A stretch of 64,000 nt of DNA. It comes from Cyanidioschyzon merolae. Its lineage: Eukaryota. The notes beneath the pieces are model-generated. The model saw nothing but the letters and a program-made list of their open reading frames with translations, was not told the DNA's origin and did no database searches. The stretch is taken from assembly GCA_000091205.1 (NCBI GenBank), contig AP006500.2. One strand, given 5' to 3'. The position numbers and the translations under genes are program-made. Positions 1 through 52,775 of the stretch are shown piece after piece (within the stretch, counting starts at the first letter, position 1; the number at the start of each line of letters is the position of its first letter).

Positions 1-3000
1 CGCCCATTCGTTCCAGGACGCATCTGCTGACGCTCGCTCTGCCATGGAACGCATATGCACATCGCTCATCGGCATACTGCGCTGCGAATCAGAGGCACGG
101 CATGTACGCCGCTGCATCGCGCTTGCGCTGCCGATACTGGAATCGCCACGCGCTGAACCGATACCGCGCAGCGCCTGACACAGCGCCCCGTACTCCGGAA
201 GCAACGCGCATCGCAACGGGGCCTGCAACCATCGCAAGCATACCGCATGGCCATACAGGACATGCTCCGGAACAAGCGACCAACCCGAACGAACGTATTG
301 TCGGCAGCGCTTGACAAGCAGGCTCCGGTCCGGGACGCCAGCTGCTCCCGCTTCAACCATGCGAAAGAGTCGTTCCTCCAGAGACGCCCCCAGGGATGCG
401 ACGCTGGAGCAACACCAACGCTCCAGTCGCTGCAAAGGCGTCTGTCTCTGTGCCCTTGGCATCCTAGACGCAGCTGCACCGACCCAATGCTGGAGAAGCA
501 CCAGATCACCCACCCAGAGCGTATGTCGATGTCGATGTCGATGACGCTGGCATGCCGTCTGCAGCACGCTACCCCGACGCACGGCATCCAGCGCATCAAC
601 CAGCAACAGCCACAGCTCCGTGCAATCCGCCTCCAGGCACAGGTCTAGTGCAGCGCGCCAAAAGGCGATCTCCTGATCATCACCAACGACGTTTCCTGCG
701 GTCGATGCCTGCACGCATGGGACACGTGTCCCGAATGGAGGCCATGCGTGCGCCGACGATGCGTGCATCCCCATGCTCGCAGTTCGTGCGCTGGATACCC
801 GCCATGCTTCCTCACCAGTACTTGTTGTGAAAGCGTCTTCCGTCGATGGGGAACGGTGTATGCCTTCTGTGGCGAGGTTAGGCGCGACGGTATCATCAGA
901 CGCAGCGGGTATCGGGTTTGATGCGTTGCTCCAAGGCGAGCCCGGAAACGCAAGGCCGTAACGAAAAAGCGCGGAAAGCACTGGGTCAGTCGCAAACAAC
1001 TGCATCCAGTCGGCGCTGGGGGCCTTAGCAAGGTAGCGCAGCGGTAGCGAACGACATGTGAGGCCCTTCACCCCGTGAGGATCCCGCAGATACGATAAAT
1101 GGCCGGCGTGACGTCGCACGTACACTACGTAGGCCAAATAGGTATTTGCAAGGGGCTCTATTTCTCGCAGAGCTTCCGCGCTCAGCGAAACTGACCAGTA
1201 GCGCGGAGAGCGGATCACGAGCTCGTGCCAGCTATCCAAGGCCGGTAGCAAACACGGCGTCCAGTCTCGATAACGAACCGGGACGGCGTTCGATGTTCCG
1301 GTGCTGGTGCTGGAGACCATCATGACCTCCACCGGCACCGGGCAAGGTGTACGAGTGTCGGCGTCGAGCGTCACAAAGCAGCGCGCTTCTGCTGCCAGCA
1401 CGTACAAGTGACGGAGCGCCTGCAGGTGGTACTGGTTATCGCTAGGCGCGGCTGGATATCGAGGATACAGCGCTGCCAACAGGAGCGCCGTCTGCAGACG
1501 ATGACAACTACTGAGCGCCACTGTTCCACCGCCCAGGAACACAAGACCTAGCGCCAAATGCCGAGCTAGGTGGTTTCCATAGGTTTCACCGCTTGTCGTC
1601 CGAGACAAGGTCGACGGCCGCGTCGCGCCTGCCATTCCACTGGACGTCAACCCAGCGACAATTCCAGTGGCACCTCGTCGACAGAGCAGCCGTCGCAAGC
1701 GCCGATATACAGAGTGCGTTCCGTGACCCGCGCACACCACGGCCATAGCAATGCTCAGGTTATCAATGCAAGCGAGAAGCCACGGCGCTGCGGAACTGTT
1801 GGCACTAGCTGTGTAGCGGAGGTCCACCAGGTCGAGCAGCTTTTCCAGGATGCGTCTCGCTTGCGGATGAGCGGTACCTGCCAGTTTCAGGGCCATCGCC
1901 AATGCCTGTCCCGTCAAGGCCAGAAGCATGTAGAGCCGCACGACAGCAGGGCGCTGAGGCGCTCCGCTGCCCAGCAAATCCGCCGAGCTGCGCGCTGCAG
2001 ACTCGATCTGCTCGGTTTCCGCTGGCACCACAGGATCGTTGGCAACGGCCACATACCACCGGCTGATCCGGCTTGTACCGGCTCCTGTGGCGAGGCCCTG
2101 TGAACGAAGCGTCGAATTCTCCTCCCGAGGCTGATCGCCACGGTGCGCAGCTTCTCGATTTCTGTCCGCTTGCCACTGGGCAGCCAATGGTGCCGGCAAC
2201 TCAGAGAGCATCCAGTCCCAACTGGGACTCATCGCGTCCCAGCGAATGAGTGCTGCTGCAAGCGAGCGCAGCAGCACCAGTTCCGGGCGTAGCAGCCACA
2301 AGGCTCGCTGCCCACTGCGCGGCGGACCCAGTTTTCGGGCCATGGCCTCATCGTTGCTGCGCAGGTACCAGACTGTCAGGGCCATCAGGGCACCCACAGC
2401 AGCAGCAGAAGCATCACTGGGGATACGCTCGGGATCGAGCAGCGCCTGCGGGCCGCTATCCACGGCGGGCATGCTACTCGTTGTGATTCCCGCGCGGAAT
2501 AATGATGATGTGGAAAATGATGATGATATTGATAATGATGGTGATGATGCTCTACCTTGTTCTGTTTCTCCTTCTGCTCCGATGCGCACCGATGACCACG
2601 AGTCGTCCGCTTCAAGACCACTACGGCTTTCTAGACGAGCGCCACGCCCTAGTGTCCCGGTTACCGAATCGTATCCAGCTCGAGTTGGCAACCTCGTGGT
2701 TGCATACGATGCACCATCATCATCACCATTATTATAGTCGTCGTCGTCTTCATTCCCGAGCGCTGTTGGCGCTCCACCTGGAACATTCGCTTGCAACCGC
2801 GTCGTCGTCGCACCCAATGCTCCATCCGTTAGACCACTCGCAAGAACACCAGGAACATCATGTGGAACAGGCGCATTAGCAGTAGCAGCATGCGTACCGG
2901 GAGCAGCGTTCGTTTCCCCATGAACAGTACCAGCAGTACCACTACGCCTTTCACGACGGGCGACAGGACGACGCTCCTCACGAGCGGGCAATTTAGCCGA

Positions 3001-6000
3001 GCTCAAACGCATTGGTGCATCGTCTGCATCACCGGCACCGGTACGCGTCACTAGTGCCACCAGACTGCCAACATAGCGTCGAGCGGCTGTCGCGGGACCT
3101 GTCACCATGTCGCTGACGTTCGCTCCTGTTGCAGCGCTGCGCTGTTCGCTTGCAGCCTCTGGCAAGCCCACCAGTCCGAGTGCCAGTCCAGCGGCCAGCG
3201 CATGCGCCTCACGGTCGCGACGGACACTCCAGGGCCAACCGCTGGTATTGTTGGTGTTGCTGGTGCCGGCTGCCGAGCCTGCGAAACCGCCACTCGCTGC
3301 CATCACTCCGGCACCAAGAGAACCGGTAGCAGGTGCAGCTGCACCTGTCGAAGCCGCAGCAGCAATGGAGGATGCCATCGCCACACCGGCTCCGTCGCAG
3401 AGTTCCACAAACAAACCCTCGAGGATAGCTTTGCGTCCACTGCAGGCAAACACAAGACCCATTGCCAACACTGCAGCGCTCTGAACCGCTGGTGATACAT
3501 CCCAGTCGGGTTGTGCAAATCCGGTAGGATTGAAGGCGCGAATATGCAGACCCGCCAGACGCGCAACCAACGCGTGCGCCGTGCCGCCGTACGAAGCCCC
3601 GAGTCCCAACAACAACGCGATGCTCGTCAGCTCATGTCGAGGTAACAGGTACGCATACCAGTCGGTAACCTGAAGCTGCCGCAAATGCCCGTGCAGACCC
3701 AGAGCCAAAACGAGTCCAGCGTGCGACGCAGTTGGTCGACTCGGCTTCTGTTGACGGATCCAGGCGCGAGTCACAGGGACCTGGGCGGTAAACGCCAGCT
3801 CCTGCTGCGCTGGCACACCACTCCGGGTCGCTGACGAGCCCCCAGATGCCTCGGGCGCGCCAGGGACTAGTCGACCGCGGATCCAGGTCGGAAAGCGAGT
3901 GCTGCTCGGCCGCAACCGCAGACCTGCTGCTACAGCGTTGTGGAACGCGCCCCATTCAAAGTAAGCAGCTGGTAGTACGCTAGCATCCAACTGGATGGGC
4001 GTCGATCGCTGCGGCAGTCGTCCGGAGAGCACCAACGGTGGCACCAGCAGCGTCTTGGTAGAGTCATCCACTGTTCCTGTCCAGGCGGTGAAAGCGCCTC
4101 GACCTATCGGGGCGGCGAGCGTGCGCTGTGCACTGGCAAAGAGCTGTGCTTGCACCTCGGATGGGGACAATAATGGCGACGACGACGACGACCCCAGTGT
4201 TGTTGTTTCGGTTGTTGCTGCAGTCGCTGCTGGATCAGGGTCGGTGAGCAACACGGGCACTGCCGAACGCAGCAGACGCTGGACTTGCCAGAGTCGTCGA
4301 TCAGCGCGAAACCGCAACCAGGGTATGATGCTGGTTAGTTCACAGCCATCGAGGTGATTCGGATGGACGACACCACGACCTCCCTGTTGTCGTCGTCGTC
4401 GTCGTCGACAACGGCGATCGTGATGATGATGGTGATAATCGTAGCGCTGCGGGATGGCATGCGTCGCAGCACTAGTTCCGGCAGCAGACGGGAACGAGCG
4501 TTCACGAGAGGGCCCAGGATCCGCCCTGAACAGCGCTACTGAATTGCCGTCGTCATCGACATCTTCATCATCGATGCCATCGTCATCGTCATCGATGTCG
4601 ATGTCGTCATCGTCGAGGAACAGCGCCCCTTCGACATCATCATCGTCATCATCGTCATCAGTGCCGTGGTGGTGGCGACGGTGGTGGTGTTCCGGATGCT
4701 TCGCTATAGCCAGCGCGGATGCAGAGCTCGACGGCATCCAGGCACGAAGAGGAGCAGCACCATTCGAGCTGCTTTTGGTGAAGGAGGAGGCAGCAACGCG
4801 CCCGGGTCCAGCGCTGGATGCATACAGGTCGCTCGTCACCTGAGCAGCAAAGCGCTCAACGGAAGGATTCAGCCACAGTCGAGAGGTGATGTTTGTTCCG
4901 AGCGCTTCACGGGACGCTGCCCCGCTCGCACGAGTCGCGCTGAACCAGGTAGCTCCCTGGACACTGCCGGAGCCCGCTCCAGTAGGCGAAAGGCCGCTCT
5001 GGAGGCGCAGCATCGCCATCTCTGGTTCGGGGAGCGCTGGGAGCCATCCCGCTACAGCTGCAGCACTAGAAACCACGCCAGCTGCCGCCAGCTCTGAATC
5101 AGCATCCGAATTGCCGGCACCAGGATGCACTTGTGGAGCGGGCTCGGAGCGCAGCCCCGCTAAAGCGTGTTGCAGCGGCAGTGCGATGCCCACTGGTAAG
5201 CGAGCGAGCGTACGCGCGTCAAGACGTATTCCCTCCTGGTGAAGGCTAACCAGTCCAGCGTCACAGGGATGCTGTAGCGGTACGGAAACCTCTGGTATAG
5301 CAGACTGCTCTGCTACAATCGTCTCGGTCGTGGAGTCCAGAGCAGCGGTTCCCACTGGACCAACACCAGCGTGCGCCGGCGACAGCTCAGTTGACGCTCC
5401 TGTGGATTCACCGGATGACGTCGATTGTTGACAGTGCTCTAGACGCTCGAAAAAAGTGACAAGTTGCGCAAGTCGAGCGACTGGATTCGGGAACTCATCT
5501 GGATGCCGGTCGTTCACGAACTCGCGCACCAGCGGTGCATCCAGTGGATGTCGCTCTGCAGAAAGACCAGAGGGAGCAGTGGAAAGCGTAGAAGCAAACG
5601 CGGCGGGAAACTGCGCCAGCATGTCCTTCGCGGGCCTGCAGCACGCTCTATCTGTTTTGTATATGCCCAGTAGTAATGGCAAACGATCCTGCAACCAGTC
5701 AAAGATGTTCAACGGTGCTTCCGAATCATCGGTGAGATATAAAGACGACTCCACGCGCTGCTGATTGCTCTGCTGATCGCTAATGCTGGCTACTTCCGCA
5801 TCCACCGGGAGGTGCAAAGACGTTTCCGCACCTTGTCCATTGTGCTGGTGATCGCATATCCGAGCTTCTTCCGGATCAGCGGTGCTGCTCCTTTCACTAG
5901 CCTTGTCCAGAGAGCGTGAATGTCGAAGCAAACTGGATGCTTCCAAGGACTCATCGCTTGAAGCAGGGTGCAATGTTCCCGAAGAAACACTCGAACGCTC

Positions 6001-11855: not shown

Positions 11856-12130
11856 ACGAAATGTACGCTAGCAGCGCTGTGCACTGCGTACAAACGTCGC
11901 ACGTGGATCACTGCAACTTACGGGGTCTTGCATCTCAGTGGTGTTCGATCCACCAAGAGCGTATCGTGAAATGCCTTGTCGGGATTGATAGCAGATGCGT
12001 TTTGATGTGCATTCATATGAAGAAGTAAAAAATCTATGGGAAAGGTATAGATATGCAAGTCGCGGGTCCCAGTAGCTTATCACAGTCATCTACCTGAAAC
12101 GTATGAAATAATTCCCAGTTTGCCGACGAC

Positions 12131-12540
12131 ACAACGAAGAGGAGCAAGAGGTAAGCGAGAAATGATGTTTGCCAGACGTAAAAATCACGAGATCGTAATG
12201 GCAACGACGATAGAGCGAAGAGGAGCAAGAGATATGCGAGAAATGATGTTTGCCAGACGTAAAACTCACGAGATCGTAATGGCAACGACGATAGAGCGAA
12301 GAGGAGCAAGAGATATGCGAGAAATGATGTTTGCCAGACGTAAAACTCACGAGATCGTAATGGCAACGACGATAGAGCGAAGAGGAGCAAGAGATATGCG
12401 AGAAATGATGTTTGCCAGACGTAAAACTCACGAGATCGTAATGGCAACGACGATAGAGCGAAGAGGAGCAAGAGATATGCGAGAAATGATGTTTGCCAGA
12501 CGTAAAACTCACGAGATCGTAATGGAAAAGAGGACACGAA
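12131..12540. repeat. Tandem repeat, 81-bp unit x ~5 (unit approximately cgatagagcgaagaggagcaagagatatgcgagaaatgatgtttgccagacgtaaaactcacgagatcgtaatggcaacga)
   Basis: Visible directly in the sequence. All frames on both strands are open across it (track ORFs 12034..12558, 12090..12512 and 12120..12602 show 27-aa or 20-aa periodic translations). A single diverged copy of the unit occurs at ~33940-34030. Confidence 0.9.
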
Positions 12541-12820
12541 TTCTAGGAGCGCTTGCACTGGTCAGTACAACAGCAGCGGCAGTAAGCGCATGGAGTTCGT
12601 GAACCGAGACTTTAACGCTGCCATCAGTACCAGACGACATGCGGTGCCGGAGACGAGACCCGAAGAGCTGACGCAATCCAACGTTTTGGGGCAGCCTCTG
12701 ATGCCCGAATTCTCCAAACAGAAACTGAAATCGATAACAGGCGGCCGGTCGAATGTTACCGGGAAGCGCCCGTAAGTAGGTAGATATATTTACCCCACAC
12801 GGTCGTGGGGCATTTTTTGG
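12541..12820 (+). mobile_element. TnpB/Fanzor-like (IS200/IS605 OrfB-type) 3'-terminal remnant, copy A. It carries a RuvC-III-like coding signature (…VNRDFNAAIST…) followed about 185 nt downstream by a hairpin (ccccac-acggtc-gtgggg) and a T-run.
   Basis: Track ORF 12590..12775 reads MEFVNRDFNAAISTRRHAVPETRPEELTQSNVLGQPL…KLKSITGGR. A second copy at 34050-34250 reads …KCTDFVSRDFNAAINISRCAVLETRPEELTQANFVEQPL…KLKTIAAGR. R-D-x-N-A-A-x-N-I is the hallmark RuvC-III motif at the C-terminus of TnpB, Cas12 and Fanzor proteins. Both copies share a downstream hairpin with core acggtcgt followed by T-rich sequence. No intact upstream RuvC-I, RuvC-II or zinc-finger region was found, so this is a remnant or a derived non-autonomous element. 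Confidence 0.4.
12793..12818 (+). terminator. Hairpin (ccccac/gtgggg stem, acggtc loop) followed by a T6 run, downstream of TnpB-like remnant A
   Basis: Seen directly. An equivalent hairpin core acggtcgt plus T-run lies at 34291-34320 after remnant B. It may be a conserved element-end structure rather than a transcription terminator. Confidence 0.4.
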
Positions 12821-13583
12821 TTACCTGAAGACACCTCAGACATGCCGGCATCATTCCCGGAACAATCTGGTCGACCTGTCCCAGTCTTACGTATAATGGA
12901 GCGCCAACTGCGCGGGACTCGGGGAGCGCACCTCTATCAGGTGCCTGCGCAGCGGCAGCGACGTCGACGTCGTCGACCGCTGAGATTTTTTCTCTCTAGA
13001 CAAAATGTTTCCATGGGCCAGCATTCTCCGATCGTGCGCATTGTTCTTTCTTTTTGTGTTTTTCAGTGCGAGGTGAAGTATCCATCAAACGCCCTACCTC
13101 CACGTTACATGACCCATACTTCTTCTCCGATATTCTAGTCGGTTCATACGTCCTATCGTGTGTGCCTAGTAGCTGCTGCAAGCGACAGCAATGGCGCGTA
13201 TCGTGCCGGTGCTTCGACCGCTGAGATCGGGGGTGCAGCGCGCCGCCGCCGCCGCCGTCGACGCCGCTGCTGCTGACAGCACGTCGCTGGTACAGCGCAC
13301 AAGACCCATATTTGTACTTGTTTTGCAGTGCACGACTCTGGAGCGCGTTTCGAGGATCTTATCAACGAAAATATCCCTTTGAAAGATATTCTTGCTGGGA
13401 AGTACAGAGGGCACGGACTTTGACAAGCTCTTCGCCTTTCCATAGAGACTTCGGGGCTGCTTTATTGGTACAGGACTCACGGAAGGGTGTTGGACGCTTG
13501 AGAGCGGCGCGTGCGGCCTCCTTGCTCCAGAACGGTGGAACTGTAGTTGTCCACTCAGCTGAGGTACCCTCCTTCCGATAGGC

Positions 13584-21673: not shown

Positions 21674-23281
21674 GTGATCGATTGCTGGAAACCGCTGGAA
21701 AGAAGCACAACCGCAACCCTAGACATCGACAAACGCTAACGTTGGCGGCTGGCGAAGCGGTGCAGCGCGCAACGGATCGCGCTGCGCTGCATCCAACGTT
21801 GCGCGATAGGCGTGTCGATTGACGGAGAGTTTTTTATTGGACAACATGTGTACAGTCGCGAGCTGCGCCCTCAGACTGCGCGCCTGATCGCAAGCCTCGC
21901 TGGAGCGTCCATCGTTCCACGCCCTACTTCCAAGTTGTATAACCCATGCTTCGTTTCGACTGATGGATGATGACGCGCTACAGCGCTGTCGAGCAGCAGC
22001 TGGGGATAGATTGCAGCAGGCGCAGCACAGCGCCGGACGACGCATAGGCAGGTGCACGTGCGCGACGCGCTTTGGCAAGCCGATCGATGGGCCAGCGGCA
22101 TGATGCGAACCATACCGAGTATGGGTTGTATCAAAAATGAAGGAGCATTGGGGAATCGAACACGAAGTTTGGTGCACCGGTGGGTGCTTTTCCGATCGCT
22201 GATACCCAGCGTGTCTGCATCGTCGCCGTTCAGAAATAAACGTTCTGTGCAAAAAAGGACAGCGCGCGCGTATCTTTCGGCCCGGAGTCGATGGCGCGTT
22301 GAAGCGTTGCTGGATGGACTCGGATATTCTCTCTGCTTGCTGACAGAGATCGCATACCGAGGGGAATCTGTGTAGCGTCACCGATCCCAGAGCAGTGGCG
22401 ATATGGACGATGAACGCTGTTCGGGTATGGGCGAGCCACGTCTATGTCTGCTTTGTCCATATCCAGGCGTGTTGGGCGCATGCACGTGTGGCGACCTGTG
22501 CAACCGAGTCGGGATGAGCGCATCGGAGCTAAGACCGAGGTTTTAGCGAACTGCGTCTTTTGCTCTAACGGGATGAAAATGAAAACTGGGAAAGGTTCAC
22601 GTGTATTTAACTAGAGTTCCTTCGGCACAAACAATCCAGCGGATCGGACGAATCTGCCGTGATTATGCTACGCGCGCATCTGCAGTAGTGCATGCTGCCA
22701 CGATACCTCGTCAGCTCATGCTATCGGAGTATTTCTGGAACTAGGAGTATACAGCCACCGCGTAGACGTCAACCAGGCTATTGTGGTCTGGCAATGGATT
22801 GTTACGCGCCCCGGCCAGCTGCTAGTCTATCTGTGCGGTTCGCTGGATCCCAGAATAACGAAGAGACACGGCCTCGAATCGGATGAACAAGGCCTAGCTT
22901 CCGCGTTCGAAAATGCGGCTCAAAGGTATTCGGGCCTTGTAGGGCAAATGCTGTGCAGGTGCGTCCCGTGTCACGCCGAGCATCAAAAATAAGCGCAGCA
23001 ACCGGCGGGCGGTTCTCCAATCGTTCCAGCTTGTATTCATATCAGGGAAACATCGCTCTGGATACCGAGATATGCAGAAGCTTATGTAGAGTCACTATGT
23101 TTTCTTCTCTGGTCTCTGAGAGCAGTGATGTATTCGGGGAAGGTCTGATTCGAATCGTCGATCTCACTCGCTTAAAACCGGCACGCAGCCCACGTCCGGT
23201 GCTCCGCACAGCGCCCGCCGCCTTGCATCGTGCGCGTTACCCAACAGCGCCCTGCACGACTGCGGGAAAGCGCTGAGCCTC

Positions 23282-24551: not shown

Positions 24552-25929
24552 ATATCAGATGAAAAAGGAGCTCTGGAACTGCACGCCAGCTTCCTACGTC
24601 TCGATTTTATTCCGAAGTTGAGTTTAGATGCACATCCTCGACATTCAACGTGAAGCAATACGCACTTACTAATGCATTCGCAGTCCTAGGATCCTGGGTC
24701 ATCTATTCGGAGCGAATCGTTCGCTTCTGTGCCGTTCCTCATGGTCACGTCACCGGAATCAAGAGGATTCGCAACACCCTCGAAAAAGAACGCCCTATAT
24801 ACCAGATATCGTTGCCCAGTGCACACGTCCAAACCCCGATTCCTATGCTGTCCGTTCGTGTGCAGCATGCTGCAACCGTGCATGCTTCAAGTTTTCTAGC
24901 GTGCGGTTGCAAGGCAACTCGTGGGCCCAGCAAGGCGCCCAGCTGCATGGACGCGGTAAACTGCGCGATGGCGTCCCTCGGGGACTCGTTCACGAGCTCG
25001 TGTCCAAAGTCCACTGAAACTCTCAAGTCAAGTAATCGATGCCTCTCGACAGAGAAACGCTCCTCGCTTTGCGGCCAACGACGAGACCGCGCTCGACAGC
25101 AGCAATCGAGCCATGGCAGGGTATGTTCGTGGCGGCTCCGTTGTGTCCTGTTCGCATGAACAAGTGCCTTGGACTGGGGCTTGCGTCACCGCAGCGATCG
25201 CTTCAGGGGAAGGGCGCGTCACCGCTTTGCTCGAAGCGAGCGTAGACGGATCGAGATGCGTCGACATGATCTCCAGCCTGGCTCTCCCTCGTGTACTTGT
25301 TGCATCATGATCGGCGTAGCGCTGCGAGAATCCTCTACCAAATGGGGCAGCGTGCACCTGCGCATTCACCCGACAGAAGACGCGAGGACGGCATCGCTCA
25401 GAACTCTCCAGGTATCTTGGGGCACGGCAGCGAGCGCGGAAATGGAGCAGGGCATCCAGAGCAGCGCCTCCTGTAACCGGATCATGGGCATCTACCGAGA
25501 TACGAAGCAAACGTTTACGCGCCGCAGGGCGGCGCTCGTCGGAAGACGTATGCTAGGCATCTGGAAACACCTGACCAGAGCCGTTCCACGGCTCTGCGCG
25601 TATCGCACCGAGCCGCCAGAGCGACACGATGGGAGCGGCAAGCGCCATAGAGATCTCAGGTACCAGCTGTGCAAGCGGTACGCGAGTCAGACCACGGAAT
25701 CAGCCTGGTTGGGGCTTGGATGCTATCACCAGCATCCTTCGACTGCTCGTATCGAGATCAGGGGGACAGGAGAGCCTGGCGTATGGAAAGTCAGACACCA
25801 GAGACGGGCAAAGCAAGCGGACTCGGAAAGAGCCCGCCACGACCTATGTCGATTTCAGTGGAAAGAGGCCCAATGCATGGAGTACACGCCCGTGTTCGCT
25901 GACCTATTCCATTGTATTCTTACGCGGGT
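24552..25929. repeat. Dispersed direct repeat R, copy 1 (~1378 bp, ~99% identical to copy 2 at 34333..35710)
   Basis: Track ORFs 24650..25159, 24745..25026(-), 25028..25510(-) and 25169..25936 are duplicated with a constant offset of 9781 nt. The copies differ by ~9 substitutions, giving single amino-acid differences in the track translations. No recognisable protein domain inside. Confidence 0.9.
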
Positions 25930-28046: not shown

Positions 28047-31000
28047 GCGCTGCGCCCTAAAAAGACGATTCTTCCCAACAACGCCAGCTGTGACATCGTT
28101 CGAAGTGATACATAGTTGATATGCGCATCGATGGACATGCATCTGTCCTTCTCCGCATGCTGTTGCTTTGTTTTTTTTTTTGATTCTGGAGCAACTTGCA
28201 GCATCACGCGGTACCGCTGATCGAAAAAGAAACCCATGCTCAGATCATCGATTGATCCGTGGACACCCGACGAGTGGTAGCGTGCGGCAGCACAGGTTTC
28301 CGCCGTTCCACACACCTGGACGGTGGCTGATCTGCTCCGCCTTAAAAACACGAACGCTGATTCCGGGCAAGTCTTTAATTCGCTGCGTTTTTGTGGTGCT
28401 TGTGATAAGACTTGTAACCGCAGACGCTCAGGACGCGGAGTGTGAGCGTGATCATTGTTGCGGTGGGTTCTGTGCTGGATTGCGGGTCGCGCCTTGTCGT
28501 GGCAAGCTACCATAACAGAAAAAAAATGCAAGATAGCGAGCTTCCTAGCATGTTTCGTGCATCATGTACACTGCGCCTCGTAAGCAACATGAAGATGGTA
28601 CCATTTATGTTGTTATACAGGGAGCAGTGAATTCTGGAGCATCTGTTCGAGGACACACCATTTCTTTTTTCTCTTTTTTTGAAGGTATACAGCTCAAGGC
28701 ATGGATCCTGTAGTTTAGAGATAGCTCGCGAAAAACTTGGTGCTGTGACTACCAGCATGCGAAGAACGGCCGTGCTCGTACAAGTCAGGTATTCTCTGGA
28801 TAGCTGGTGGATGAAGTGCCCCTCAAAAAGTCCTCATGCTCTACGTCATGCACCCGAAACAGAACATATGAACCTTTGTCTACATAATTGCCTCCTCGTC
28901 CATCCATACCACTCCATACGTCGTCTAAGATGAATTTGCGAAGAATCCGCATCATACCAAATTTCCGTACCTTGGATACGAACGAGGATGAAGAGGTATC
29001 GATGGCGAAAAACGAAAACGTGTTTCTGCAGGAAACCTCAGCCCATGGAGCTACACGCGATCGATTTGGAACTAGATCGCGAAAGCTTATGATAGGCGGA
29101 ACGGATGCTTGTCTCGATCAATGAGACCTCATTCGCGAAAAATACTAGAACTGGATATGAGCCAGGAAGAAGTGGGAAATTGCTGGTCTCAAAGGAGCGA
29201 TACCCGTTGATTCCAACAGAATCAGCCGTAGCGGCGATTCAATCATGCGGGCGCCAACAAATCGACGAACGGAAAGAGTCGTTCAACACCTCATCCCCTA
29301 TCGATGCAGTTTCTGGTTTCACCTCTCCGTATTCTTGTGTCCGGGTTGTAGGTCACGTCGCATTTTATCATGCGAAAAACCGCTCAGTGGCTACACAGCT
29401 GAGACTGGCCTTGAGCTGTTCTTCGCGCACGACTGTTATCCCAGGTTCAAGCAAACTGAACGTCCTCCATATTGTCATGTGCCGATTTTACGCGCACAGA
29501 TGAGTAGACGAGCTGTTTGCATGCGTGACGCGCAAGTTCTTCGATAAACTGTACTTTGAGAAATCGATGCCCGCGCTACGCAGCTGTAAAGTGCCCTGTT
29601 GCGCCTCTGCTCGTGTGCGGGAGGAAGCGGAAGGCGCTCTTTTGTCCGTGGGCGTGCTCACGAGGGAGAAGGGAACGAAAACGTGCCACGCGAATACGAG
29701 ATACTAGCATTCATAGTACAGGTGAGTTTCAGTCTAAGCGTCGACTGAATTCCTCTGAACCCGATTGACAGAGCGGAAATGGAGAATACAGACGAAATCC
29801 ATGCCATCATCATGCGTAGAGGAGAAAATGACACTTTCGAGAAAACGACTACGCAGGCAAGAAGAGAACGTGTCGAAGCGGAAAAATCGGTCAGAGAGCA
29901 TTGCCAAAGCCTCTCGATTATAACACATCCAGAAGAAGGATCTTCCATAACGTAAGATGCAGGGCGCAACGGGGAATGACGTAGCTTCCTGGTCGAACGA
30001 GCATCGCCTGGCTTTCCTCATCCTGACAAACTTCGTCATGCAATTATTCGTACGAGATACGCACGCTAGGATATCAGGTGTCCATATTCCTCGGAGAGTC
30101 ATCGATCAAGTCGCCGTGCGACAACAGAACTTTTGCTCGGGACAGAATACGGTTGGGAGGCATGCGATATGAGCGCTTCTGTATCGACCTCGACACACTG
30201 AGCAAAGTACGGAGCAGAGATGAATGCTTCGTCCACTTTATTCAGAGAACGAGAGTGCGCGAACGTCCCAATGTCTCTCTGAGACGATTTTTAACCAGAG
30301 TGCATGAGACTGAGCAGGGATCGCAAGCGGTTTCGGGTGTATACAGGCAAGACGCGTTCATTCGCCTGCGACTTCAATGAGTAGGAAAAGGAACTAACAG
30401 ATAGCATGCGTCATTTGGTAGTAGCCTATGGTGCTGGACGCGCTGTCGCACGCAACTGCTGCAACCCTGGCCCGTCAGTGGGCGCATACAACGCGAACGC
30501 GAGTCGATGCTGCACGATCCCCATCGATGCATTGGGCACGATGTACACGAATCACGAGCACGGTTGTGCGCTGAACCAGGCAGAGGAGCAGGAAGGAAAA
30601 CATATCCCGATGCACGAAACGGTGTAGCATACGCTAGTTGAAGGTCGCATGACGAGGCAATGGAATGTGAGAGACTCGTTCTGTTGTGACTTTACCAGCA
30701 ACATTGGCAGCAAGCACGCTCTGCACCGAAACCCGAACGCCTTAATACATATCCGGAAATGGCTCGTACTGCCGCAGCTCTCAGCGACTGTGTTTCCAGC
30801 GAATTTGCGCGGATATCGTTTCGCAACCAGTGTGGATATTGTGCTGAAATGCTGCAGGTTTGGTTTGAAAGTCTCAGTGGCTTGCGAAGGTGGCATTGGA
30901 TCCACGCGGAGAGCCTGAACCTCACACGGTACCATTCATGATTCCAGCATGGCTAGAATATCGCATCTGTACACCAGGGACGTTTTCCTGGGCAACTTAT

Positions 31001-51368: not shown

Positions 51369-52477
51369 TGCGTAAGAGGAAACGGGAATAAGCGCACATC
51401 GAGATATCGATCATGTTGGTGGCGCTTCTCCTCAGTCCGATCGAGGTGACAAGACTTTCTGGCTAACGTGTGCGCTTCCGTTGGGGTCATTGCGCTTTCA
51501 GCGTACGAACTTGGTGCAGATGGCGTCGGGTTCCGGGCACACTCCGAGGTATTCCGTCAATGCGCGAGCGCCGGGGCGTCCATCGGCTGCTGGCGAGATA
51601 CGGCGAACGGTCCTCGAATCCGAAAGATAACAGTTACGGGGCTATTGGTATGTGTGTGTATGTGTGTCGCCGCGTATCTTGCTTGCTTGGGCGCGAGACT
51701 TTGGAGGCCACAGCACCACTGCTCGCACATGGGCGACTCTTCACACACGAATGCATTTCGCAGCAGAATCGATCATCGTCGGACGCGTAGCGAGGACTCG
51801 CGCGTACAGCTGCACGTTTTCGCCGACGATAGCGCGCATGAGGCGCCGAATAGGAGCTCGTTACGAACCGTAATACCCGCCACGCCCAGCAACCGCATGC
51901 CAGGGCGATATATCGCTTCCGCTTGTTTAGGCCTGGCACTCATCAGCGTATACGTCCAAAGTGTCATCCGTTGCCAAGGCTGGATACCAGCGTCAGCGAA
52001 GCGCTTGGTCTCGATCAGCGGGCATTGCATAGCGCATGAGCTCTCCGGATGCGGATCCAAGCCTCGCACAACGCCCCGCGACCACTTGTATATAAAGCGT
52101 TTGCTATAGCTCGCGAAAGGAAGCGCTTTTGCTGGTCATCGTGACACTCACGGTAACCACAACAACAGCATAGCGTGCCCGTCAATCAGAGTCTCAGCGC
52201 GTCTGGGAATCATACGCATGAACCGTGGTTCTTCTGGTTCGTCTCGAGTCCATGCGCAGCCCATAGTCGGATGATATTCATGGACAGTCATGCTTTCCAT
52301 GGACACACGAGTGTCGATCATTGGTATCGACACCGTTGCCGACACAACTGGTGCGTCCCCATTTGCATCCATGCTCGCGTTGTATCCGCCGAAAGGCGCC
52401 CTGCGCTCGAGCGCGCTGGACACGTACCCTGTCGCGGGAAACGTCCTAATCTTGAAAGTACTGGCAATGAATGTACT

Positions 52478-52775
52478 ACACTGTATTATTTCGTACTAAA
52501 AGGACATCAGTGTCCATCGCGGGAAAAGTCCTGATCTAGAATGTACGAACATCTAATGGATTAGAATGGATTATTTCGTACTAAAAGGACATCAGTGTCC
52601 ATCGCGGCACACGCCGCAATCTAGAAAGTACGAACATCTAATGGATTAGAATGGATTATTTCGTACTAAAAGGACATCAGTGTCCATCGCGGGAAACGTC
52701 CTGATCTAGAATGTACGAGCATCTAATGAACTAGAATGGATTATTTCGTACTAAAAGGACATCAGTGTCCGTTGT
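52478..52775. repeat. Tandem repeat, ~88-bp unit x ~3.4 (unit approximately attatttcgtactaaaaggacatcagtgtccatcgcgggaaaagtcctgatctagaatgtacgaacatctaatggattagaatgg)
   Basis: Directly visible. Each unit contains a short palindrome ggaca-tcag-tgtcc. Two units contain tcgcgggaaa, which is a TTTCCCGC E2F-like element on the other strand. The array ends at the first codon of track ORF 52765..54273. Confidence 0.85.

Follow-up and report, generated by a model that had tools for sequence, protein, structure and literature searches.

Fanzor1 proteins are the eukaryotic homologues of TnpB, and the biochemistry of Fanzor was established in 2023. They act as RNA-guided RuvC endonucleases whose omegaRNA originates from the 3′ end of the mobile element and may overlap the last codons of the gene, and a zinc finger of four cysteines (CCCC) in the NUC/TNB domain is common to SpuFz1 and ISDra2 TnpB (PMC10432273). 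In the alga Cyanidioschyzon merolae, one Fanzor1 family, CMe-1A, has been described, with ~150 copies that share about 80% identity with a ~3-kb consensus; the family was reported to be devoid of terminal inverted repeats, its target-site duplications were undetermined, and it was left unclassified (Bao and Jurka, 2013, Mobile DNA 4:12; PMC3627910). Some CMe-1A copies are still intact and encode Fanzor1, and a non-autonomous relative, TE-N2_CMe, has its 5′ 635 bp in common with CMe-1A (PMC3627910). Here we describe a 64-kb stretch of chromosome 18 from the nuclear genome of C. merolae 10D (the window, on which all coordinates are based; features lie on the plus strand unless noted), in which three older Fanzor1 relics, termed copies A, B, and C, lie without annotation within 22 kb. 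The three copies are very probably inert remains of a Fanzor1-encoding transposon lineage.

The comparison with CMe-1A is informative in both directions. Besides the shared species and the shared Fanzor1 protein, CMe-1A has the same C-terminal motifs (DEFRTS ... NRDFNAAINI) as a family recovered from hot-spring metagenomes, and this metagenomic family fits the published description of CMe-1A (~80% alike, ~3 kb, no terminal inverted repeats, many decayed copies). The window copies, in contrast, are about 45–56% identical in amino acid sequence and 63–66% in nucleotide sequence to the younger metagenomic copies. At the nucleotide level, A and B are 62–67% identical to nine full-length metagenomic copies, over ~0.45 kb only, and thus fall short of the ~80% identity to a ~3-kb consensus by which CMe-1A, compared here through its published description, is characterized; they group with other old copies rather than with the younger family. 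Their 3′ ends carry a CCCCA..TGGGG hairpin and a T-run, whereas the younger family displays GGGCGGG..CCCGCC and a terminal GTTCGA..TCGAAC palindrome. Finally, the window copies are ~0.5-kb internal-deletion derivatives, and those of the B type are preceded by a different ~1-kb 5′ unit.

The window copies are therefore older and more diverged deletion derivatives of a known family, and nothing new in kind. The novelty implied by a first-pass annotation, made from the nucleotide sequence of the window alone, does not hold, as CMe-1A of C. merolae was described in 2013 (PMC3627910). Their discovery value is small, given that Fanzor1 of C. merolae has been in the literature since that year and that the copies cannot make a nuclease. 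The annotation and repeat masking of the 100%-complete, transposable-element-poor C. merolae genome should, however, allow for such relics.

Assignment of the relics to Fanzor1

The origin of the window had been surmised to be a GC-rich algal nuclear genome, and six of its long open reading frames (ORFs) correspond exactly to annotated C. merolae 10D proteins, BAM82361 to BAM82372. The comparison copies, designated as L-numbered loci, reside on hot-spring metagenome contigs from close relatives of 10D. The proteins of these contigs share 90% clusters with 10D proteins, and the syntenic contigs L005 and L006 match the window at 99.35% identity over 20 kb.

The first-pass annotation had read a short ORF of copy A as the RuvC-III end of a TnpB/Fanzor-type nuclease, left behind at the 3′ end of a mobile element, and this reading is upheld by a chain of homologies and by a profile search. 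The chain sets out from a 143-aa ORF in copy B, for which a search of 5.8 billion proteins returned only three related clusters. P0001, which is 98% identical to this ORF, comes from the syntenic contigs of a close strain, and P0002, one of the three clusters, lies within a more extensive relic of contig L001, which reads ...LIVACGAGRW...LIDEFRTSYTHHELGC...VRGLLALIS...FVNRDFNAAINI. With the extended L001 relic as the query, 253 protein clusters were retrieved, about 80% identical, up to 479 aa in length, and all from hot-spring metagenomes; the window copies match this metagenomic family by tblastn with E values of 1e-15 to 1e-19. Scanning of the metagenome contigs yielded 322 tblastn-confirmed stretches, many with stops or frameshifts, and the full-length copies encode an N-terminal basic region together with the motifs GADPG (RuvC-I), VDEFRTS (RuvC-II), and NRDFNAAINI (RuvC-III). 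A search with the family profile gave 1472 representatives at E <= 0.001, many of them 600–700 aa long.

Profile A3 was assembled from 70 diverse relatives of the metagenomic family and contains no window-derived sequence. Against the PDB, it retrieved the Fanzor1 proteins of Parasitella parasitica (9cf0, E 1.1e-21), Spizellomyces punctatus (SpuFz1, 8gkh, E 5.1e-14), and Guillardia theta (9cer, E 1.3e-6), with aligned columns that take in the RuvC-I, RuvC-II, and RuvC-III motifs. The same profile matches the window copies directly: copy A at 12569–12706 (21.4 bits, profile positions 561–605), copy B at 34073–34207 (30 bits), and copy C at 30319–30774 (30–37 bits), with an additional N-terminal piece of C at 29837–30214. 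Because A3 matches both the solved Fanzor1 proteins and A, B, and C directly, the Fanzor1 assignment of the window copies is solid, and, as judged by sequence, the window protein falls within the Fanzor1 clade rather than with bacterial TnpB. The likeness to the solved proteins spans WED/REC, RuvC-I (DPG), RuvC-II (DEFRTS), and RuvC-III (NRD..A..N), and extends to the layout, in which the gene occupies the 3′ end of a mobile element and is followed by a short non-coding tail.

Other searches returned less. The window ORFs, including the B ORF, have no match in Pfam, and PF07282, proposed in the first-pass annotation as a check, remained below threshold, at 13–14 bits versus a cut-off of 26.3, with relatives at 13–18 bits. 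Neither a phmmer search of P0002 nor the shallow family profile A2 produced a match in the PDB. An AlphaFold2 model of P0014, computed from a shallow alignment, had a predicted local distance difference test score (pLDDT) of 43, a confidence too low for use.

The catalytic residues are unequally preserved among the relics. The RuvC-III catalytic Asp, in the R-D-x-N-A-A-x-N motif, is kept in A and B, and the RuvC-I Asp (G-x-D-P-G) and the RuvC-II Glu (D-E-F-R-T-S) have been removed from both by internal deletion. Copy C retains a decayed RuvC-II and lacks RuvC-I. Since at most the RuvC-III motif survives, the window copies encode no nuclease today. A Cys preceding the motif had also been taken for part of a zinc finger; this residue (KCTDF) is unique to B and is not conserved in the other copies. 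At the zinc-finger region, the Cyanidioschyzon family consensus reads TSYTHHELGC...VRGLLALVS, and the wider clade VDEFRTT....VRGLLWC.ST. This clade lacks three or four of the four zinc-finger cysteines conserved in SpuFz1 and TnpB. Relative to the solved Fanzor1 proteins, then, A and B retain only the RuvC-III end, and the algal clade as a whole is without the CCCC zinc finger, a feature that may interest miners of compact Fanzor editors.

Two further features were observed among the full-length copies (L007–L088). A ~22-aa acidic repeat (KDEDEKEADPATQEVEDNDFVV) occurs in variable number just before RuvC-I, and a stop at one particular codon (RPPE*TRENF) is common to many independent copies, with W or L at this codon in others.

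Internal deletions and a probable shared mini element

Copy A (12006–12835), delineated by local alignment to B, blastn, and nhmmer, is an internally deleted mini-Fanzor1 element that runs from a 5′ start region into the last ~90 codons of the gene and on to a 3′ non-coding end. It had at first been confined to 12541–12820. The homology itself stands, and the limits do not, as A runs over ~12006–12835 and B over ~33812–34325. An nhmmer profile of the old copies aligns with A at 12500–12845 (E 1e-94). The 61-aa ORF at 12590–12775, identified by the A3 profile and tblastn as a relic of the Fanzor1 C-terminal tail, translates as originally read (MEFVNRDFNAAISTRRHAVPETRPEELTQSN..., also given as MEFVNRDFNAAISTRRHAVPETRPEELTQSNVLGQPL...), carries the RuvC-III motif R-D-F-N-A-A-I at 12605–12625 (NRDFNAAIST, 12602–12631), and is 56% identical to the metagenomic family by tblastn (E 7e-15). 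Relative to B, a +2-nt frameshift is found near 12570. Copy A further contains a tandem array of 81 bp x 5.0 with 98% matches (12124–12525; TRF, repeat search, and alignment to B), which is an amplified segment from just upstream of the deletion junction. The repeat unit is in frame (27 codons), and the array gives rise to a spurious 160-aa ORF at 12120–12602 and to spurious ORFs of 140–174 aa on both strands.

The core of copy B (33812–34325) is the same mini-Fanzor1 element and was recognized as two abutting matches to the full-length copy on L015; the nhmmer profile of old copies matches it with an E value of 3e-96. In it, the 5′ untranslated region (UTR) and ~160 nt downstream of the ATG run straight into the gene's final ~270 nt, which are followed by the 3′ end. 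The second copy noticed in the first-pass annotation lies inside the 143-aa ORF (33821–34252, 98% identical to P0001) and reads ...KCTDFVSRDFNAAINISRCAVLETRPEELTQAN..., also given as ...KCTDFVSRDFNAAINISRCAVLETRPEELTQANFVEQPL..., with the RuvC-III motif RDFNAAINI at 34106–34132 (SRDFNAAINI, 34103–34132). This ORF is open across the deletion junction, by chance, and is found undisrupted in 10D and two strain contigs.

The architecture of the deletion emerges from comparison with full-length copies. Positions 2053–2242 of L015 (5′ UTR and ~160 nt after the ATG) align with 33815–34008 of B, and positions 4214–4488 (the last ~270 nt of the gene) with 34003–34272; about 1.97 kb is missing between the two pieces, including the WED, REC, RuvC-I, and RuvC-II regions. 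Copies A and B align with each other by blastn over 12553–12699 and 34056–34200 (77.6% over 147 nt, E 1e-17), by relaxed blastn over 12447–12786 and 33953–34286 (about 70% over 340 nt, E 2e-46), and by local alignment over 12006–12203 and 33812–34030 (score 71 vs a shuffle maximum of 45). They are thus collinear through the deletion and have its junction in common. The same junction is found in L018 (7089–7425) and L043 (3640–4054, minus strand), both collinear with B, and the flanks of L018, L043, L002, and L003 have nothing in common with those of the window. Given this one junction in A, B, and dispersed copies with unrelated flanks, we infer that A and B probably go back to a single deleted, non-autonomous mini element and its later amplification; between decayed insertions and non-autonomous derivatives, the two options initially offered, the latter is the correct one. 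If so, propagation required in cis no more than the 5′ start region and the final ~300 nt, and the cis needs of the mini element would bear on the transposition mechanism of the unclassified Fanzor1 elements.

Two alternative placements of the short copies were discarded. A reading as 5′-truncated tails, which would have hinted at a retroelement-like or rolling-circle mechanism, was dropped, as full-length copies match B in two abutting pieces. An alignment of "MELEVRDPGG" in B to the internal "HELGCTLQRV" was likewise rejected in favor of a match to the start region "ATGAAAAAGCAAGTCGACGATCCTGGAGG" of full-length copies; the HELGC region is carried by L003, whose deletion differs.

Directly upstream of copy B lies a ~1-kb unit (32829–33811) that is 68–70% identical by blastn over ~1 kb to L003 9084–10041 and L018 6096–7104. 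It precedes the same kind of relic at these two unrelated loci, where the flanks are unrelated. An hmmsearch of its three copies detected no Fanzor hidden Markov model (HMM) signal, and no reading frame is preferred. A decayed Fanzor coding sequence was considered and rejected, as the HMM signal was lacking and the 5′ regions of younger copies gave no match. The unit is probably the 5′ non-coding part of the B-type element lineage.

The first-pass annotation counted two copies in the window and overlooked a third, more decayed relic with a different internal deletion. This copy C (29837–30783; tblastn E 4e-15, A3 profile) consists of an N-terminal piece at 29837–30214 (~120 codons; profile positions 9–131, 18 bits) and a C-terminal piece at 30250–30783 (~130 codons; profile positions 459–588, 37 bits). 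The latter contains a decayed RuvC-II (IDALGT) and RuvC-III (HRNPNAL, within HRNPNALIHI), in which the catalytic residues are lost. There are several in-frame stops, RuvC-I is absent, and the copy lies just past the 3′ end of a P450 gene (31103–32746, minus strand), on its downstream side. Other arrangements occur outside the window. L003 has a deletion of its own, joining the 5′ UTR to YELGCTLQ at about residue 444; in L002, an old mini copy and a younger one are arranged tail to tail (2823–3476); and L043 holds two old mini copies head to head, about 10 nt apart (3640–4419). The inverted relic pairs of L002 and L043 suggest nested insertion or palindromic rearrangement.

A history can be proposed that accommodates these structures. 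The parent element would have encoded a Fanzor1 protein of roughly 800 aa, with a non-coding 5′ region ahead of the gene and a short 3′ end behind it. An internally deleted mini element would have arisen from it once, retaining its cis-acting parts at the 5′ end and in the 3′ omegaRNA/end region, and would then have spread to several sites, presumably with the transposition machinery of full-length elements acting on it in trans. All copies probably drifted neutrally thereafter to ~70% identity and are probably inert today, with the hairpin and T-run as the eroding remains of a 3′ terminal structure. A parallel is provided by miniature inverted-repeat transposable element (MITE)-like and IS200/IS605 palindrome-associated derivatives, in which the coding interior is likewise deleted, both terminal regions are kept, and several dispersed sites are occupied; the mini elements differ from MITE-like derivatives in being without identified terminal inverted repeats or target-site duplications.

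The 3′ hairpin, probable neutral decay, and competing explanations

A hairpin and T-run were reported ~185 nt downstream of the RD motif in both copies, and both are present, with the core ACGGTCGT in common and a modest stability. In copy A, folding and the alignment of old copies define a 6-bp hairpin, CCCCAC(ACGGTC)GTGGGG, followed by T6 (12793–12818; hairpin 12793–12810, T6 12813–12818), ~20 nt past the stop codon and near the element 3′ end, with a minimum free energy of −17.4 kcal/mol and a z of −1.9 versus shuffles. By the same means, the 3′ end region of copy B shows a 4-bp hairpin, CTAC(GGTC)GTAG, followed by a T-rich stretch (TTT, TTTTT) at 34291–34317, with the stem at 34291–34302 and a z of −1.2 versus shuffles. 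The element 3′ end is placed at about 12835 in A and 34325 in B, where the old copies cease aligning. After the stop codon, old copies read ...ACCCCA(loop)TGGGGAAYGTTTTT..., and the younger family reads GGGCGGGTTTCCCGCC, then ACTACTGTACACC..., ending in the palindrome GTTCGACTTTCGAAC about 55–60 nt past the stop.

No constraint on the protein or the RNA of the copies was detected by codon positions, strain divergence, covariation, or Rfam. The ~40 codons that follow the motif are conserved between A and B, as first noted, and so is the earlier remark that the differences do not concentrate at third positions accurate, with 10, 14, and 17 differences at codon positions 1, 2, and 3 (chi-square p = 0.41). 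From this even pattern, conservation at the RNA or DNA level had been proposed; neutral decay is the simpler explanation. RNA-level conservation receives no support from RNAalifold, which gave a weak consensus for six old copies, with a covariation term of +4.36 (positive being penalizing), and did not recover the hairpin. The hairpins of old copies are short and not conserved in register, and L003, L002, and one L043 copy no longer have one. For the 3′ ends of 65 younger copies, RNAalifold returned no structure; terminal helices are present in their consensus, and manual counts found mostly broken pairs and few compensatory changes, as would be the pattern of dead copies. The copies have no Rfam match. 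When B is compared with L003, the identity of the Fanzor tail (69.4%) is matched by that of the neighboring ~1-kb non-coding unit (68.4%), and both have diverged to the same extent. Relative to its L005 orthologue, the B ORF shows 3 changes in 432 nt (two non-synonymous, one synonymous), no different from the 99.35% identity of the surrounding region.

Several observations weigh against the history of a single amplified, now inert mini element. Copies A and B differ upstream of 12006 and 33812 and so mark no common, exact 5′ terminus, and B-type copies carry the extra ~1-kb unit upstream. No target-site duplication or terminal motif was found for the mini elements, and transposition of the deleted form is consequently deduced from the shared junction in dispersed copies. 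The strains are only ~0.65% divergent, and at this distance selection on the B ORF could escape the comparison. Lastly, several old copies and the younger family all bear a hairpin at this position, with stems that differ in sequence, which hints that the structure once mattered.

One alternative is that the mini elements are still functional guide-RNA modules, the 3′ ~300 nt of which form an omegaRNA-like scaffold that is loaded in trans by an intact Fanzor1 and would help the mini elements persist or home. The deletion did keep what Fanzor/TnpB systems need in cis, the 3′ omegaRNA of which may overlap the C-terminal codons (PMC10432273); copies of the deleted form came to occupy several sites; a hairpin stands just past the stop in A, B, L043, and the younger-family consensus; and intact Fanzor1 has been reported in some CMe-1A copies (PMC3627910). 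We nevertheless consider present function improbable, in view of the missing covariation, consensus structure, and Rfam match, the loss of the hairpin from three of the old copies, and a module that is conserved no better than the adjacent non-coding DNA. Old copies are, moreover, only ~63–66% identical in nucleotide sequence to the younger family whose protein must bind them, and a T-run inside the element end would halt an RNA polymerase III transcript before the flanking guide. A related proposal, placed mainly in the past, is that the ~0.5-kb mini elements were once-successful and previously undescribed "guide-only" Fanzor1 derivatives, made up of a 5′ start region and a 3′ omegaRNA region, that borrowed both Fanzor1 and the transposition machinery in trans; in its bolder version, some copies could still express an orphan omegaRNA. 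It is unlikely as well, if a little less so, and, if true, would show the cis sequences needed by an unclassified eukaryotic Fanzor1 transposon.

The two other alternatives dispense with a shared mini element or with inertness. On the view that A, B, and the remaining short copies each derive from a full-length insertion of their own and lost their middle parts independently, one would point to C and L003, whose own junctions demonstrate that internal deletion recurs in the family. Yet A, B, L018, and L043 run collinearly and without gaps through one junction and have an old-type 3′ end (CCCCA hairpin, T-run) unlike that of the younger family, and four identical ~2-kb deletions arising separately are improbable, which makes this account very improbable in turn. 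Domestication of the 143-aa B ORF, as a host gene for a small protein made from the N- and C-terminal ends of Fanzor, would agree with an ORF that spans the junction in frame and is intact in all three sequences noted above. It is the least credible of the explanations considered and close to negligible: divergence from the strain orthologue is that of the neutral background, with two of three changes non-synonymous; the same ORF is broken in A and other copies; its 5′ frame differs from the frame that holds the conserved N-terminal motif in full-length copies; and it has neither a Pfam match nor relatives beyond the three clusters among 5.8 billion proteins. Inert relics of one Fanzor1 lineage thus remain the preferred interpretation of the three copies.

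Neighboring repeats

Other repeats are found in the vicinity of the relics. A ~227-bp segment at 12987–13213 (region 12973–13227), 140 nt downstream of A, is flanked by a perfect 14-bp direct repeat, TCGACCGCTGAGAT, and is 82% identical to the sequence just upstream of younger Fanzor copies in L034, L022, and L066. The segment has the appearance of a small inserted repeat whose target was duplicated, perhaps a relative of TE-N2_CMe. Weak nhmmer matches to a profile built from 5′ flanking sequences of younger copies at 22572–22909 (minus strand, E 1.5e-7) and 21898–21960 (plus strand, E 2e-4) may be further fragments of Fanzor-associated repeats.

A direct duplication of 1376 bp, 99.4% identical, occupies 24554–25929 and 34335–35710, 9.8 kb apart, and its second member begins ~10 nt past the 3′ end of copy B. 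A link between copy B and this duplication, through 3′ transduction, is conceivable; no element copy is present at the other duplicate (24554). Both duplicates also occur in strain contig L005, at 98.8% identity to the other window copy. Farther downstream, at 52432–52770, lies a tandem repeat of 85 bp x 4 with 87% matches.

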